From sequence record MW883059: a stretch of DNA of 64,000 nucleotides; one strand, 5' to 3'. This DNA is from Escherichia phage vB_EcoM_SYGD1. This document shows positions 2,548-49,425 of the stretch, in pieces. The stretch's first letter is position 1, and each line of letters opens with the position of its first letter. The translations under genes and the position numbers were made by a program. Below the pieces are notes generated by a model, which saw only the letters and a program-made list of their open reading frames with translations, was not told the origin of the DNA and did not search any database.

Positions 2548-5688
<3,141 letters not shown>

Positions 5689-5729
5689 GATTTCTCCTAA
5701 TCTGGGCTTTAATTAGTTTATAATATTTA

Positions 5730-7431
<1,702 letters not shown>

Positions 7432-43374: not shown

Positions 43375-43404
43375 GTTTACAAGTTGGCAAGGTTATGGTA
43401 TAGT
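43375..43404 (+). promoter_or_regulatory. T4-type early promoter
   Basis: gtttac ... tggtatagt. Confidence 0.5.
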
Positions 43405-43723: not shown

Positions 43724-43990
43724 ATGGGCTTTCCTAAATTAGAAGTAGGCGATTTAGTCTTAACAAAATTGTGGAATGATGCTCAATCAGTAGAAATCTG
43801 TCAATATCGTGGAGCAACAGGTAATTTGATGTACACGATTTATAACCCAGAAATTTTGTTAGAGTGTCATTTGGAACGCTTTATAAAAGACACTGATAGT
43901 ATGCCTTATAGTGTATCGATTGTGCGTAAATCTGACACAAAGGAATACTCTAAAATTTTAGAAAAAATTCATGCCAATAAAAAGGATTAA
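43724..43990 (+). CDS. Hypothetical protein
   Basis: ORF 43712-43990; start at MGFPKLEV assumed. Confidence 0.35.
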   Translation: MGFPKLEVGDLVLTKLWNDAQSVEICQYRGATGNLMYTIYNPEILLECHLERFIKDTDSMPYSVSIVRKSDTKEYSKILEKIHANKKD

Positions 43991-43991
43991 T

Positions 43992-44522
43992 ATGAAACGA
44001 TTAGTATTAGAAGTTAGTTCACTTTTTGGTGAATTGGCTATAGAAAAAGTAAATAATATGTATCGTTTGACGCAAGAAGACGATATGCTATATTTTACGC
44101 CTAGCGAAATTATTCATTTAACCCAAATTGAAAAACCTTACACTGATAAAATTGTAAGCATTAATGATGAGCATAAAATTCATTTTTATTCTTTATGCCC
44201 AGGATTTAATATTGAAAGCGAGTCAATATGCTTATCAATTAATAATTGGGATAATTTTATAACTAAAATTAAATATTTTTATTATTCTAACGAAAGAAAA
44301 CATGGTTTAAAATGGTTTAAAAATTGCAATGCTATTATTACTAACGCTTGTAATCAAAATTATGAAACTGTTTTAAATGTATCAAAGTGTTACGAAGAAG
44401 GAGATGTCTTAACTATTCGTCAATCGGTAAATGATGTTAATGTTGTTGTATTAAACAAAGAAGAAGCTGTTTTATTAAAGACTTATCTTGATTCTGTCAT
44501 TCCAACTATGATTTCAAAGTGA
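43992..44522 (+). CDS. Hypothetical protein (paralog of 44529-45050)
   Basis: ORF 43971-44522; C-terminal EEAVLLKTYLDSVIPTMISK resembles SEAEAMIKYLTTVTPSMKG of next ORF. Confidence 0.4.
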   Translation: MKRLVLEVSSLFGELAIEKVNNMYRLTQEDDMLYFTPSEIIHLTQIEKPYTDKIVSINDEHKIHFYSLCPGFNIESESICLSINNWDNFITKIKYFYYSNERKHGLKWFKNCNAIITNACNQNYETVLNVSKCYEEGDVLTIRQSVNDVNVVVLNKEEAVLLKTYLDSVIPTMISK

Positions 44523-44528
44523 GGAAAT

Positions 44529-45050
44529 ATGTTTATTTCGAGTGAAAGTGGTTTAATTCGTGTTGAATTTAAAAATGACATCTTCCTTATTCAAGGAGAT
44601 GATATTATTAAAATGAGTTATGACGAAATCAAGAAAATTTGCCATGCTCTTGAAAGTCATGGAAAAGTGAACGCTGTTATTGATATTGGCGATTTATGGG
44701 TGACACTTTATGAAGTATCCGAAGGATTTAACATTGAAGATGAAAATAACATCTTAGCTATTGATAAAAGAAGTGATTTGTTTGATGTATTAAAAGTTTA
44801 TGAACATTCAAACGGTGGAAGAAAAGCTGTATTGATTTATCAAAAACCGCATTCATGCGGAACTGCTTCAATCATTTCAAATATTGAAGATGAAACTGAT
44901 ACTTATATGTGTGTTTTAAAAGCTGGTGGTGACCGTCATCCGGATTTTATTTCTATTCGTCAAAACAATGGAGAAATTTCATTATCAAAATCAGAAGCTG
45001 AAGCTATGATTAAGTATTTAACAACTGTTACACCTTCAATGAAAGGATAA
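44529..45050 (+). CDS. Hypothetical protein (paralog of 43992-44522)
   Basis: 173 aa; shared C-terminal motif. Confidence 0.4.
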   Translation: MFISSESGLIRVEFKNDIFLIQGDDIIKMSYDEIKKICHALESHGKVNAVIDIGDLWVTLYEVSEGFNIEDENNILAIDKRSDLFDVLKVYEHSNGGRKAVLIYQKPHSCGTASIISNIEDETDTYMCVLKAGGDRHPDFISIRQNNGEISLSKSEAEAMIKYLTTVTPSMKG

Positions 45051-45052
45051 TT

Positions 45053-45514
45053 ATGATTATTAATGAAAGCTCTTGGCACTATAAATTATTCAAAATGTTT
45101 AATGATGAATGGAAACGACCTAAGACACTGTGCGCGTATTTTTGGTCTATTGTTATTCCTACATTTTTCGTTTCTTTTTTCGGATGTACTATACTCGCAG
45201 GTCTAACTATCATCTGCGCAGAAATCATGCAGAAATGGCTTATTTTTGGTAGTTTATGGACTCTTATTCCATCAGCATTTATACTTGCCATTTTGCTTGT
45301 TTTACTTATTATTGGTTCATTTGTTATTCCTGCACAACTGCATGAAAAATATAAAGATTATAAATGGAAAAAGGATTATACTTTACATGTAGAAAATATT
45401 GATAGGGCGTATAAAGGTTTACCTCCTATTAAACCCAAGAAATCTATTATCGTCGAATTTTTAAAAGCTCGTAAAGCTAAAGTATGTCCTGTTATTGAAT
45501 ATAAGGCTGAATGA
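45053..45514 (+). CDS. Hypothetical membrane protein
   Basis: 153 aa with about three transmembrane helices; ATGA-coupled to downstream nucleotidyltransferase. Confidence 0.45.
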   Translation: MIINESSWHYKLFKMFNDEWKRPKTLCAYFWSIVIPTFFVSFFGCTILAGLTIICAEIMQKWLIFGSLWTLIPSAFILAILLVLLIIGSFVIPAQLHEKYKDYKWKKDYTLHVENIDRAYKGLPPIKPKKSIIVEFLKARKAKVCPVIEYKAE

Positions 45515-46524
45515 TGAAAACAGTAATGAAAAGCTATTTTGGTAGTCATCTTTATGGAACTTCTACCCCAGAATCTGATGTAGATTTTAAAGAAATTTTT
45601 GTTCCTCCTGCTCGTGATATTCTTATCGGAAACGTCAAAGAGCACATGAGTAAAAACACCAACAACACATCATCTAAAAACACTAAAGATGATATTGACC
45701 ACGAATTGTATAGTCTTAAGTATTTCTTTAAATTAGCAGCAGATGGTGAAACCGTAGCATTGGATATGCTTCACACTCCACCTGAACTAGTGGTTAAATC
45801 TGATTTGCCTGATGTGTGGAAGTTTATTCAAGACAACCGTTCTCGTTTTTATACGACTAACATGAAATCCTATTTAGGATATGTCCGTAAGCAAGCTTCT
45901 AAATACGGTGTCAAGGGTTCTCGTTTGGCTGCATTACGTGATGTATTGAAAGTAGTTAATCAAATCCCTGAGCAATGGGTTGATTACCAAGAAGACGGTT
46001 CCATTAAGCAGCGTCGTACTAAAGTTGAAGATATTAAGCATCGTCTTCCAAAAAACGAATTCTGTGAATGGGTGTTCCATGATCATGAGAAAACAGGCCC
46101 ACAAACGTTCTATACTGTATTGGGTCGTAAATATCAGACAACGCTTTCTCTTATTGAGCTTAAGCAGTCACTGAACAAATTAAATGCTGAATATGGTGAA
46201 CGCGCTCGTAAGGCCGAAGCCAATGAAGGCATCGACTGGAAAGCTCTGAGCCATGCTTGTCGTGGTGGACTTCAACTATTGGAAATTTACAAAACTGGTG
46301 ACTTGGTTTATCCACTTCAAGACGCTCCATTTATTCTCGACGTGAAGTTGGGTAAACATCCATTTAAAACAGTTCAAGAGTTTTTGGAAGATGTGGTCGA
46401 TCAAGTAGAAGCAGCATCTACTGAAGCTTCTAAGAACGGTATGCAGCAAAAAGTAGACATGAGTTTCTGGGATGACTTCCTTGAGAAGGTGTATCTCGAA
46501 AACCATCGAAGTTATTATAAATGA
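45511..46524 (+). CDS. Pol-beta superfamily nucleotidyltransferase-like protein
   Basis: N-terminal GSHLYGTSTPESDVDF fits the G[GS]x9-13 D-x-D nucleotidyltransferase signature; 337 aa. Confidence 0.5.
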   Translation: MMKTVMKSYFGSHLYGTSTPESDVDFKEIFVPPARDILIGNVKEHMSKNTNNTSSKNTKDDIDHELYSLKYFFKLAADGETVALDMLHTPPELVVKSDLPDVWKFIQDNRSRFYTTNMKSYLGYVRKQASKYGVKGSRLAALRDVLKVVNQIPEQWVDYQEDGSIKQRRTKVEDIKHRLPKNEFCEWVFHDHEKTGPQTFYTVLGRKYQTTLSLIELKQSLNKLNAEYGERARKAEANEGIDWKALSHACRGGLQLLEIYKTGDLVYPLQDAPFILDVKLGKHPFKTVQEFLEDVVDQVEAASTEASKNGMQQKVDMSFWDDFLEKVYLENHRSYYK

Positions 46525-46526
46525 TA

Positions 46527-46551
46527 GGGAGCCTTCGGGCTCCTTTTTTTT
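46527..46551 (+). terminator. Rho-independent terminator (part of stem-loop plus early promoter cassette)
   Basis: ggagccttcgggctcc + tttttttt. Confidence 0.7.
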
Positions 46552-46575: not shown

Positions 46576-46605
46576 GTTTACTTCTATCATAAAGCATATT
46601 ATAAT
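46576..46605 (+). promoter_or_regulatory. T4-type early promoter
   Basis: tttcacaaagttGTTTAC, 18 nt, TATAAT. Confidence 0.65.
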
Positions 46606-46637: not shown

Positions 46638-47138
46638 ATGAAGAGAAACACAATGCATATTTTAATGAAATGCCTTGGCAACAAAATTAATGATTTTAAT
46701 CATAAGCGTGTTAATGATTACATTAAAGACACACTTGAGATTAAAGACGTACTTTTTAGAGGACTTACAATAGAGGAAGTACTATCTCATAAGTTTGAAG
46801 TTAATAGGAGAATCAAATTTAAAAGAATAACTTCCTTTAGTAGTGAATCTCATATAGCTGAAACATTTGCAGCAGAACGCTATATGACTAATGTTTTAAT
46901 AGTGTTAAAAAATGCAAACGTTTTTGACTATTCAACTGCTATGATTGAAATTTTAGAAAATTTAATCGCAATTGAAGAATCTGGCCAGATTGATGATGAT
47001 AAGCTTAATAAGCTTTATGATAATCTTTCTATGGTGGATTATGAAAGAGAGTTTTTATTGCCAATTAATTCGGAGTTAACAGTTAAAAACATATATTTTG
47101 ATAGCAAAAAGAGCATGCATATAATAGAAATGGAATAA
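46638..47138 (+). CDS. Putative mono-ADP-ribosyltransferase (R-S-E type), small
   Basis: VLFRGL (aromatic-Arg motif), TSFSSES (S-x-S), YEREFLLP (E-x-E followed by LLP) in the order expected for C3/Alt/Mod-type enzymes. Confidence 0.4.
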   Translation: MKRNTMHILMKCLGNKINDFNHKRVNDYIKDTLEIKDVLFRGLTIEEVLSHKFEVNRRIKFKRITSFSSESHIAETFAAERYMTNVLIVLKNANVFDYSTAMIEILENLIAIEESGQIDDDKLNKLYDNLSMVDYEREFLLPINSELTVKNIYFDSKKSMHIIEME

Positions 47139-47147
47139 AAGCATAAA

Positions 47148-47171
47148 GGGGCCCTAGAGGTCCCCTTTTTT
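47148..47171 (+). terminator. Rho-independent terminator (part of stem-loop plus early promoter cassette)
   Basis: ggggccctagaggtcccc + tttttt. Confidence 0.65.
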
Positions 47172-47225: not shown

Positions 47226-47407
47226 ACAACTATCAAAACAAACACTTAAACGGAAAACAAAATGAAAATTACACCAATTGAAGTAAAAAAGTTGATTGAT
47301 ACAGAAGAAATTTCAGAGTGTTTTGAAAGTTTCTTAGAAGACGCAACTGAAGATAACGCGGTTTATCTCGCCCAGAAAATTATCGAAACTTATTTGGAGA
47401 AGAATCA

Positions 47408-47671
47408 ATGACAGTTTACGTAGATGTTTTAATGAATCATGGATGGAAACTTCGCGGTCATCCAACTAAAAATTGTCATATGTTCACTGATGGAGATATT
47501 GAAGAGCTTCATAAAATGGCAGAAGCAATAGGAATGAAACGTTCTTGGTTTCAAGATAAACGCATTAAACATTATGACTTACACGCGCGCCGCCGCCAAA
47601 AAGCTGTAGAACTTGGAGCTGTAGAAGTATCTCGTCGCGAAGCAGTAAAAATTTGGCAAACATTAAAATAA
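47408..47671 (+). CDS. Small conserved-domain protein, hypothetical
   Basis: 87 aa, basic, His/Cys-containing (HGWKLRGHPTKNCHMF). Confidence 0.4.
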   Translation: MTVYVDVLMNHGWKLRGHPTKNCHMFTDGDIEELHKMAEAIGMKRSWFQDKRIKHYDLHARRRQKAVELGAVEVSRREAVKIWQTLK

Positions 47672-47740: not shown

Positions 47741-48709
47741 ATGAAAACTGTAACTATCAATAAGGGTATCTACTTCGGTAAAGAAATCTCTGGAACTTTT
47801 GAGCTCTTAGGCGAATGGTTCCCAGATAATGCTCCGGTAGATGCACAAGGAGATGGTAAAGTTTTTGTTGAAATTGACGGTAAGCGTCGCGGTGTTTGGG
47901 TTTACAAATCAGACATTTCATATGATGGTGTAAAAGTTGAAGAAGTTAAAGAATCGTATGAAGATATGAAAACCCGCATTAATAAAAGATTTAATGTTAT
48001 GGGAATGATGACGAATGGTATTATTAACGGAAATATTCGTTCATTGATTATCTCTGGCGCAGCAGGTATTGGTAAAACGTATTCTTTAGATAAAGCTTTA
48101 AATAAAGCAAATGATATTGGATACATTGAATATAAAAGCATTAATGGTAAAATCTCTGGTATTGGTCTTTATGAACAGCTTTGGAATAATCGTGAAGAGA
48201 ATTCTGTCCTTTTGATTGATGATGTGGATGTTTTCTCTGATATGGACATTCTTAATCTTCTAAAAGCCGCTCTGGACACCGGAGAGACCCGTAAAGTCTG
48301 CTGGAGCACTGCATCTTCTTACTTAGAAGAAAAAGGCATTGAGCGTGAGTTTGAATTTAAAGGAACGATTGTTTTTATCACAAACGTTGACATTGACCGC
48401 GAATTAGACCGTGGTACTAAACTTGCTCCACATTTACAAGCATTAGTGTCCCGCTCAGTTTATTTGGATTTGGGTGTTCACACTAATGAAGAAATTATGG
48501 TCAGGGTTGAAGATGTTATTCTTTCAACCGACATGATGCAAAAGCGCGGTCTTTCTGATGAAGAAACTTATAAAGCATTATCATGGATGAAAGTCAATGT
48601 TAATCGTTTACGCAATGTTTCACTGCGTACTGCACTTTATCTTGCTGACTTTATTATGACCGACAAAAATCATTGGGAAGAAATTGCTGAAACGGTATTA
48701 TTAAAATGA
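47741..48709 (+). CDS. P-loop (AAA-like) ATPase
   Basis: Walker A GAAGIGKTYS, Walker B LLIDDVD; ORF 47723-48709, start at MKTVTINKG assumed. Confidence 0.55.
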   Translation: MKTVTINKGIYFGKEISGTFELLGEWFPDNAPVDAQGDGKVFVEIDGKRRGVWVYKSDISYDGVKVEEVKESYEDMKTRINKRFNVMGMMTNGIINGNIRSLIISGAAGIGKTYSLDKALNKANDIGYIEYKSINGKISGIGLYEQLWNNREENSVLLIDDVDVFSDMDILNLLKAALDTGETRKVCWSTASSYLEEKGIEREFEFKGTIVFITNVDIDRELDRGTKLAPHLQALVSRSVYLDLGVHTNEEIMVRVEDVILSTDMMQKRGLSDEETYKALSWMKVNVNRLRNVSLRTALYLADFIMTDKNHWEEIAETVLLK

Positions 48710-49425
48710 AAAAATATTTTACTATCTATAAAACTGAAATATTAAATTTAAAGACAGGTATTAAGAAATACTATTATGGTCGACATATAACTAATAACAT
48801 CAATGATTCGTATGTTGGTAGTGGAAATTATATAGAACGTGTAAAAGTGTCAAATGACCACATATTATCAAAAACGGTTTTAGAAGTTTTTGATAATTAT
48901 GATAAAATGGTACAAGCTGAAATATTATATATCATGGCAGGTAAATTGAAATATGGAAAAAACTGTGTTAACCTGTCATACGGGGGTGAAGGAGGAAAGG
49001 TTGCAGATGAAACTAGGATAAAATGCAAAAAGCATTCTATAAATTTATGGAAAAATCCTAATCATATACAGCATATGAAGAAAAAGATGAAAGAGGTTAC
49101 ATCCACGCCGGAAGCTAAATTAAACACTTCAATAAAAACTTCGCAACGATATAAGGACCCAGTTTTTGTTAGAAAAGTTAGTAATATTATTAAAAAGAAA
49201 CTAAGCAATCCTGTAGTAAAAGAAAAGCATATTAATGGAATTAAAGCTGCAAAGCGTTCTCATTTAACTATATGGCAGTATGAAGATGAATTATTCGAGC
49301 TTTGGAAAGAAACTAAATATGGATGGAGAAAATTTACAAAGGAAGCTATAAAACACGGATATCCAAATGAACCGTATCGTAGTATGGTATCAACTTTTCA
49401 GAAAAGACATTTAGAAGAATCCTAA
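48706..49425 (+). CDS. GIY-YIG homing endonuclease (seg-like)
   Basis: YFTIYKTEILNLKTGIKKYYYGRH...YVGSG; C-terminal basic repeats. Confidence 0.65.
   Translation: MKKYFTIYKTEILNLKTGIKKYYYGRHITNNINDSYVGSGNYIERVKVSNDHILSKTVLEVFDNYDKMVQAEILYIMAGKLKYGKNCVNLSYGGEGGKVADETRIKCKKHSINLWKNPNHIQHMKKKMKEVTSTPEAKLNTSIKTSQRYKDPVFVRKVSNIIKKKLSNPVVKEKHINGIKAAKRSHLTIWQYEDELFELWKETKYGWRKFTKEAIKHGYPNEPYRSMVSTFQKRHLEES

Follow-up and report, generated by a model that had tools for sequence, protein, structure and literature searches.

The second of two overlapping open reading frames in the window (the whole 64,000-nt stretch of Escherichia phage vB_EcoM_SYGD1, record MW883059, that was analyzed) is, judged by its sequence, the orthologue of T4 nrdC.11 and therefore an already annotated gene. 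It likely encodes a phage RlaP that takes part in RNA repair, and the small membrane protein encoded directly upstream is likely separate from it; the activity and substrate proposed for NrdC.11 are carried over from preprint work on two Pseudomonas RlaPs. The nucleotidyltransferase (NTase) reading given in the initial annotation is correct but already known, since the gene is annotated in T4 and the family has been described biochemically.

Organization of the Locus and Identity of nrdC.11

The source stretch belongs to a T-even phage of the genus Tequatrovirus, and the DNA of the 2.7-kb locus is 97.3% identical to that of phage ACG-C40 and 95.6% identical to that of T2. Both ORFs were found where they had been placed initially (45053-45514 and 45511-46524). 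The features of the locus are as follows.

43376-43404, upstream of both ORFs: promoter-like site, from a consensus scan only
45053-45514, plus strand: membrane ORF, phrog_944, 153 aa
45511-45516, plus strand: stop/start junction ATGATG, read directly from the sequence
45514-46524, plus strand: nrdC.11 orthologue, predicted RlaP-family (PF10127) Pol-beta nucleotidyltransferase, 336 aa (ATG 45514) or 337 aa (ATG 45511)
45541-45585, plus strand: NTase active-site motif G11-S12 ... D23-x-D25 (FGSHLYGTSTPESDVD), from the alignment (n = 145)
45691-45705, plus strand: D61-I-D63-H-E65, with D63 the probable third catalytic carboxylate, on predicted strand 62-68 (AF2)
46526-46545, plus strand: intrinsic-terminator-like hairpin followed by a T-run, directly 3' of nrdC.11, from a consensus scan only
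46577-46605, downstream of the terminator-like hairpin: early-promoter-like site, from a consensus scan only

The membrane ORF is preceded by a good Shine-Dalgarno sequence, AAAGGA, 5 nt 5' of its ATG. Its TGA stop codon (45512-45514) overlaps either of the two candidate ATG codons of nrdC.11, at 45511 (4-nt overlap) and 45514 (1-nt overlap), and the junction between the two ORFs reads ...AAGGCTGAATGATGAAA.... The 337-aa ORF at 45511-46524 has the N-terminus MMKTVMKSYFGSHLYGTSTPESDVDF and contains YFGSHLYGTSTPESDVDF. The second ATG, which yields 336 aa, is the start used by RefSeq for T4, T2, and ACG-C40, and its spacing to an AAGG is better than that of the ATG at 45511. The ATGATG confirms the initial observation that the NTase start overlaps the stop of the membrane ORF. 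This overlap is real, but it carries little information by itself and is weak evidence of a functional connection. A crude gene call of the window gave 85 pairs of adjacent ORFs on the plus strand; 15 of them have the same ATGA overlap, and 34 show overlap of any kind. If the promoter-like site (43376-43404) and the terminator-like hairpin (46526-46545) from the consensus scans are taken as the limits of a multi-gene early transcription unit, the membrane ORF and nrdC.11 would be its last genes.

The order of the genes, tk - rI - rI.-1 - mobD.5...mobD.1 - [membrane gene] - nrdC.11 - ... - nrdC.10, is that of the T-even phages. The T4 record contains an orthologue of equal length with ~98% amino-acid identity (tblastn). 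This is T4 NrdC.11 (NP_049709), whose RefSeq product is "nucleotidyltransferase," and the matching CDSs in T2 and ACG-C40 are annotated as nrdC.11 or "nucleotidyltransferase." The initial annotation had recognized no ORF of this kind among the T4 genes, which is wrong because nrdC.11 is both present and annotated in T4. The T4 gene lies at the corresponding position of the early region tk - rI - mobD.x - nrdC.11 - nrdC.10. T4 lacks only the membrane gene, whose place is taken by the homing endonuclease gene mobD, directly upstream of nrdC.11 and overlapping it by 17 nt. In contrast, ACG-C40, T6, RB32, and others resemble SYGD1 in having the 153-aa membrane protein directly upstream. Downstream, the window also differs from T4 by genes for a Mod-like ADP-ribosyltransferase and a DUF4031 protein, which have no T4 counterpart at this locus. 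A match of nrdC.11 to the nucleotidyltransferases of COG3541 was published in 2006 (PMC1524935), and the gene is dispensable for growth of T4 in the laboratory (PMC9825161).

Family, Active Site, and Fold of NrdC.11

NrdC.11 matches a single Pfam family, PF10127 (RlaP, "RNA repair pathway DNA polymerase beta family"), with a score of 44.7 bits (E = 1.8e-11) against a gathering cut-off of 23 bits. The HMMER alignment extends over residues 7-135 only, corresponding to profile positions 23-142 of 249. PHROGs assigns the ORF to phrog_388, "nucleotidyltransferase," and among the matches listed, a precomputed PF10127 assignment was present on 120 of 120 homologues. NCBIfam and PADLOC returned no match to the NTase or to the membrane protein. 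The NrdC.11 family is very large, with 2,900 matches in a 90%-clustered database. When representatives of 50%-identity clusters were searched, 3,451 matched at E<=1e-3 and 830 at E<=1e-30, mostly over their full length.

To examine the active site, the window protein was aligned with 144 representatives sharing 33-54% identity (n = 145). G11 and S12 are invariant (145/145). According to the initial annotation, the assignment to the Pol-beta superfamily would fall if the D-x-D residues were not conserved in homologues. This objection fails because D23 and D25 are kept in 144 of the 145 sequences, the sole exception being a gap. The search for a third acidic residue, also suggested there, led to D63. 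This position is D or E in every sequence, while D61 is found in 138, and from the pattern of Pol-beta NTases D63 is the probable third catalytic carboxylate. A further group of near-invariant residues, toward the C-terminus, comprises Y124, Q128, K131, Y132, R138, R231, D242-W-K-A, H248, R251, P268, K279, and G281.

Structure prediction places NrdC.11 among the Pol-beta NTases. The AF2 model (pLDDT 94.9, pTM 0.85) comprises a predicted N-terminal alpha/beta NTase domain (~1-135), a beta-rich insert (~155-209), and a C-terminal helical bundle (~214-336), so the unrelated fold that would have spoken against the initial assignment was not obtained. In Foldseek searches of the PDB, the model matched kanamycin nucleotidyltransferase (KNTase), the NTase-like protein 3c18, and Hailong HalB with probabilities of 0.99-1.0, E ~3e-3, and TM ~0.3. 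Sequence searches of the PDB found nothing significant, with no match at E<=1 for the protein or by the profile of 145 sequences. The top Foldseek matches, KNTase / ANT(4') and 3c18 (E ~3e-3, probability 0.99), resemble the NrdC.11 model in having a helical HEPN-related domain after the Pol-beta NTase domain, but they are only 7-10% identical to NrdC.11, with TM ~0.3. The substrates of KNTase are small-molecule aminoglycosides. The R-x4-6-H motif of HEPN nucleases is absent from the NrdC.11 sequence, as judged by eye, and the protein does not show the combination of a minimal NTase and a HEPN domain with this motif that defines MNT-HEPN systems. Overall, the Pfam score, the conserved G-S, D-x-D, and D63 residues, and the predicted fold all bear out the initial reading of NrdC.11 as a Pol-beta-superfamily nucleotidyltransferase.

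NrdC.11 and the RlaP Family

The RlaP family was named by Burroughs and Aravind after PF10127 genes were seen in RNA-ligase operons (cited in PMC12776372, PMC7824862), and phage RlaPs had earlier been predicted to restore the lost nucleotides of cleaved RNAs before ligation (2021 review, PMC7824862). A preprint of December 2025 characterized two RlaPs from Pseudomonas, PfRlaP and PaRlaP (PMC12776372). These enzymes add one or two NMPs onto an RNA 3'-OH, show no activity on DNA or protein, and work best with Mn2+. When offered a mimic of a nicked tRNA, they favor the 3' end of the 5' half, and they partially rescue aminoacylation when one nucleotide of the anticodon loop is missing from the tRNA (PMC12776372). 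RlaPs show little specificity for the NTP, and with total E. coli RNA as substrate they label rRNA as well as both full-length tRNA and fragments of tRNA (PMC12776372). The authors flag unresolved chemistry for the RtcB-linked systems. The same study named T4 NrdC.11 as an RlaP and placed it in cluster 5 of a sequence similarity network, the assayed enzymes being members of cluster 1a (PMC12776372).

NrdC.11 resembles PfRlaP and PaRlaP in passing the Pfam gathering score and in possessing three conserved acidic residues. In the crystal structure of PfRlaP, an NTase domain is joined to a C-terminal helical domain whose last helix packs back onto the NTase domain (PMC12776372). The NrdC.11 model likewise has an N-terminal NTase domain and then a C-terminal helical domain, a likeness of described architectures rather than of superposed structures. 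The PfRlaP structure was not recovered by the sequence and profile searches of the PDB copy. In contrast to the Pseudomonas enzymes, NrdC.11 belongs to cluster 5 instead of 1a and possesses conserved C-terminal motifs of its own as well as the beta-rich insert at ~155-209, and the RlaP Pfam model aligns only with its residues 7-135. The C-terminal two-thirds of NrdC.11, including this insert, may give the protein another substrate, which is a point against transferring the activity directly.

Genomic Context and RNA Repair

Like the RlaP family in general, the clade to which NrdC.11 belongs is linked to RNA ligase and other RNA-repair genes. Scanning one genome per bacterial or archaeal species for the clade motif DWKAx[SH]HAxR yielded 156 relatives. 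Eighty of their loci, whose matches were full-length and 33-53% identical, were retrieved; the neighboring ORFs were clustered, and the cluster representatives were scanned against Pfam. The recurrent neighbors were Pnkp (kinase, phosphatase, and PF16542 ligase), Hen1 (PF12623), RtcB (PF01139), and Ro60/TROVE. At least one of Pnkp, Hen1, RtcB, or Ro60 lies within 6 kb of the NTase in 11 of the 43 bacterial loci with full 6-kb flanks, and none of the four does so in the remaining 32. The repair genes are often directly upstream and co-oriented. In several Hen1-Pnkp-NTase operons, the end of Pnkp coincides with the start of the NTase, as in locus L178, where Pnkp spans 3338-6004 and the NTase match starts at 6001 (4-nt overlap). 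Among viruses, two contigs encode RtcB within 4 kb of an NrdC.11 homologue, and in RB43-like phages the gene overlapping the nrdC.11 start has a ProQ-C-like RNA-binding domain. In the window, no RNA ligase, Pnkp, or other repair gene adjoins nrdC.11. The T-even healing and sealing enzymes PseT/Pnkp, Rnl1, and Rnl2 are encoded elsewhere in the genome. Because of the repair-gene neighbors and the ProQ-C-like gene of the RB43-like phages, the context supports a role in RNA-end repair for the NrdC.11 clade itself, beyond the association of Pfam RlaP in general.

By analogy with the Pseudomonas enzymes, NrdC.11 would replace the nucleotides lost from the 3' ends of cleaved RNAs, after which T4 Pnkp/PseT, Rnl1, and Rnl2 would restore a functional tRNA. 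The suggestion in the initial annotation that the protein might modify host RNA is close to this reading, and its other suggestion, that the protein makes or caps a nucleotide signal, found no support. It seems extremely improbable that NrdC.11 synthesizes a nucleotide second messenger as enzymes of the cGAS/DncV (CD-NTase) type do, or that it caps or depletes an immune nucleotide signal. The G-S / D-x-D signature of the Pol-beta superfamily is all that speaks for such a function. The Pfam match is to RlaP only, PADLOC gave no match, and CD-NTase, cGAS, and OAS structures are absent among the listed Foldseek PDB matches of the AF2 model. Moreover, the neighbors are RNA healing and sealing enzymes rather than effector or sensor genes, and the characterized members of the family work on RNA 3' ends (PMC12776372). 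The CD-NTase/Mab21-type fold with a matching family assignment and an adjacent effector gene, by which such systems would be recognized, was thus not found.

A second alternative stays within RNA biochemistry and is given a low probability, namely that NrdC.11 modifies RNA 3' ends outside the repair of anticodon loops, for example by rebuilding trimmed tRNA CCA ends or by tailing host or phage transcripts and so altering their stability. The broad labeling of rRNA, full-length tRNA, and tRNA fragments by RlaPs and their slight NTP specificity (PMC12776372) would be consistent with such a role, as would the conservation of the large clade-specific C-terminal region and the 32 of 43 full-flank loci at which none of the four repair genes is nearby. 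On the other hand, the operon partners that do recur, Pnkp, Hen1, RtcB, and Ro60, repair internal breaks, and on a nicked-tRNA mimic the characterized RlaPs act preferentially at the 3' end of the 5' half (PMC12776372).

The Upstream Membrane Protein

The 153-aa product of the upstream ORF is assigned by PHROGs to phrog_944, "membrane protein" (E = 2.6e-49), and tblastn finds it in 911 phage records at identities down to ~27%. Word-indexed searches gave few homologues (12 and 26 sequences), and its distribution was taken from tblastn and BFVD. Hydropathy and charge indicate a hydrophobic core at aa 27-96 with basic termini. Divergent members retain an N-terminal S-W-H-Y...P-x-S-L-C-x-Y-F-W and a C-terminal K-A-x-K-x-K-x-C-P, with S7, H9, C27, Y29, K143, and C145 invariant in alignment A2, and the transmembrane region between these motifs is variable.

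An AF2 model built from database homologues (pLDDT 79.8) contains two long helices, 26-66 and 71-121, that form a hairpin. The termini are paired through strands 2-4/149-151 and helices 8-16/132-142, which puts both basic ends on the same side. Taken with the basic residues at each end, the hairpin points to a protein that crosses the membrane twice and has its N- and C-termini in the cytoplasm. The protein had been described initially as having three membrane helices; based on the model and on hydropathy and charge, a two-helix hairpin is more likely. The BFVD matches are all uncharacterized phage membrane proteins, some of them from non-T4-like phages, and the ORF is predicted to encode a separate, widespread small phage inner-membrane protein. 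A connection of this family with RNA ligases was considered and set aside as too thin; it consisted of one distant member (locus L200) ~2 kb from a PF09414 RNA ligase with no NrdC.11 homologue nearby.

Relationship of the Two Genes

The initial annotation had presented the two ORFs as a coupled membrane-NTase pair, which raises the possibility of a dedicated two-component module. The role of the membrane protein would then be to anchor or gate the NTase or its product, or to respond to it, as in Hailong; alternatively, the pair would be a phage countermeasure supplying an oligonucleotide of the Hailong kind. The Hailong operon has two genes, one for a transmembrane channel (HalA) and one for an NTase (HalB) that makes oligo-dA (review, PMC13434031). 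The arrangement in the window also recurs to some extent. In Tequatro-, Mosig-, and Gaprivervirus, as well as in related uncultured contigs with an NrdC.11 of at least 75% identity, the membrane gene immediately precedes nrdC.11 and overlaps it by 4 nt; in many other T4-like phages it lies within ~2 kb upstream of nrdC.11.

The wider distribution, which the initial annotation had proposed to examine among T4-like phages, argues against a dedicated module. While the overlap is kept in the three genera named, T4 and some relatives have NrdC.11 without the membrane gene, its place being taken by mobD in T4 and by a DUF7438 gene at locus L042. Other T4-like phages, including those of Klebsiella and Enterobacter, have one or two soluble ORFs in between, and it is these that overlap the nrdC.11 start. 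The upstream gene that overlaps nrdC.11 comes, across lineages, from at least four families unrelated to one another. NrdC.11 occurs in 1,564 phage records, compared with 911 for the membrane protein, relatives of which are found in non-T4-like phages. The clustering of bacterial neighbors recovered RNA-repair partners and no recurrent membrane partner, small membrane ORFs falling outside its specific screening. ATGA overlaps are, in addition, common in the window (15 of the 85 pairs).

The comparison with Hailong itself points the same way. No sequence similarity between HalB and NrdC.11 was found in the PDB sequence and profile searches, and PADLOC matched neither protein. HalB, with ~217 aa, is without the large C-terminal region of NrdC.11. 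In contrast to HalA, which is an obligatory partner of HalB, the membrane neighbor of nrdC.11 is dispensable and replaceable, and the combination of a HalB-type NTase with an obligatory HalA-like partner was not found here. A dedicated module therefore appears very unlikely, as the overlap is common and the upstream gene is replaceable across lineages. We conclude that the coupling, that is, the co-transcription and stop/start overlap with nrdC.11, reflects only the compact layout of T-even early genes and that the resemblance to Hailong is superficial.

A narrower form of cooperation, limited to those phages in which the stop and start codons of the phrog_944 gene and nrdC.11 overlap, is likewise highly improbable. 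The two termini of the membrane protein would form a small cytoplasmic domain, in which His9, Cys27, and Cys145 are invariant. If the two proteins did cooperate, RNA-end repair might, for example, be located at the inner membrane, the site of action of membrane-linked defense nucleases or of imported tRNase/rRNase colicins. Alternatively, the membrane protein might gate a membrane response to a product of NrdC.11 in a Hailong-like manner.

Implications for Phage RNA Repair

The preferred reading remains that of NrdC.11 as a phage RlaP in RNA repair, with the membrane protein separate from it. The replacement of nucleotides by such enzymes has already been published as a prediction and is supported by the biochemistry of bacterial relatives, so that the window adds no new concept. 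What it contributes is confirmatory or negative: the gene is one already known from T4, a very large family shares the conserved active site, the NrdC.11 clade itself occurs in Hen1-Pnkp and RtcB operons, and the membrane neighbor is no fixed partner. If the RlaP reading is true, NrdC.11 would provide a third step, the replacement of nucleotides, in the T4 tRNA-repair pathway of Pnkp and Rnl1. This would enable the phage to defeat host anticodon nucleases that excise a base in addition to cutting the tRNA.

Variability upstream of nrdC.11

Insertion or replacement appears to have recurred at the junction that precedes nrdC.11. In the window, the gene of the adjoining membrane protein (45053-45514) is directly preceded by two tandem y05I/MobD.1-type paralogues, whose pair of Pfam domains is described as a 'putative transcription factor'.

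Genes preceding the membrane gene in the window
43971-44522, +, y05I/MobD.1-type paralogue 1 (PF24449 plus PF24448)
44529-45050, +, y05I/MobD.1-type paralogue 2 (PF24449 plus PF24448)

In contrast, T4 possesses one copy of mobD.1, and the place of the membrane gene is taken by the homing endonuclease gene mobD (locus L004, NC_000866 56429-57208). In another locus, L046, the membrane gene and nrdC.11 are separated by a 267-aa ORF that is unrelated and matches nothing in Pfam. In the RB43-like phages (loci L078, L082, L083, L087 and L089), whose NrdC.11 is ~50% identical, the start of nrdC.11 is overlapped by ORFs of one family, which end at ~5004-5007. The tested member of this family, from L078, possesses a phage ProQ C-terminal-like RNA-binding domain (PF24203, E=2.4e-13).

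In some T4-like phages, the membrane-protein gene is present in two tandem copies (L088, 3712-4206 and 4203-4592), while in others the protein carries a soluble N-terminal extension of ~90 aa (L068, 2430-3167; L074, 2607-3335). Because His9, Cys27 and Cys145 are conserved in all variants of the family, these residues hint that the protein has a metal site or some other cytoplasmic mini-domain that is conserved.

Many GenBank phage records label NrdC.11 homologues 'thioredoxin', presumably inherited from the gene name nrdC.11, and one uses 'putative HNH homing endonuclease'. In one record of T2, the membrane protein is called 'prohead core protein'. All three labels look like annotation errors.

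Variability downstream of nrdC.11

Gene content also differs among T-even phages on the downstream side.

Features downstream of nrdC.11 in the window
46577-46605, promoter-like site of the Mod-like ORF
46638-47138, +, Mod-like ORF, 166 aa (phrog_832)
47148-47164, terminator-like hairpin of the Mod-like ORF
47262-47411, +, 49-aa ORF (phrog_6888)
47408-47671, +, DUF4031 protein, 87 aa (PF13223, E=1.6e-21)
48706-49425, +, homing-endonuclease-like ORF, 239 aa (phrog_314, E=1.8e-30)

The homing-endonuclease-like ORF overlaps the nrdC.10 stop by 4 nt. Because nrdC.9 takes that place in ACG-C40, T2 and T4, the ORF appears to be a mobile insertion confined to the SYGD1 lineage. The phrog_6888 and DUF4031 ORFs, which overlap each other by 4 nt, are both found in ACG-C40 but are absent from the same locus in T4 and T2.

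The 166-aa ORF is bracketed by its own promoter-like site and terminator-like hairpin. In T4, the corresponding position between nrdC.11 and nrdC.10 is not occupied by any gene. Pfam returned no matches for this ORF, but PHROGs assigned it to phrog_832, 'RNA polymerase ADP-ribosylase' (E=4e-24), and the annotations of T2 and ACG-C40 describe it as ModA/ModB-like. It may encode an extra Mod-type ADP-ribosyltransferase adjoining the predicted RNA-end-modifying enzyme, NrdC.11.
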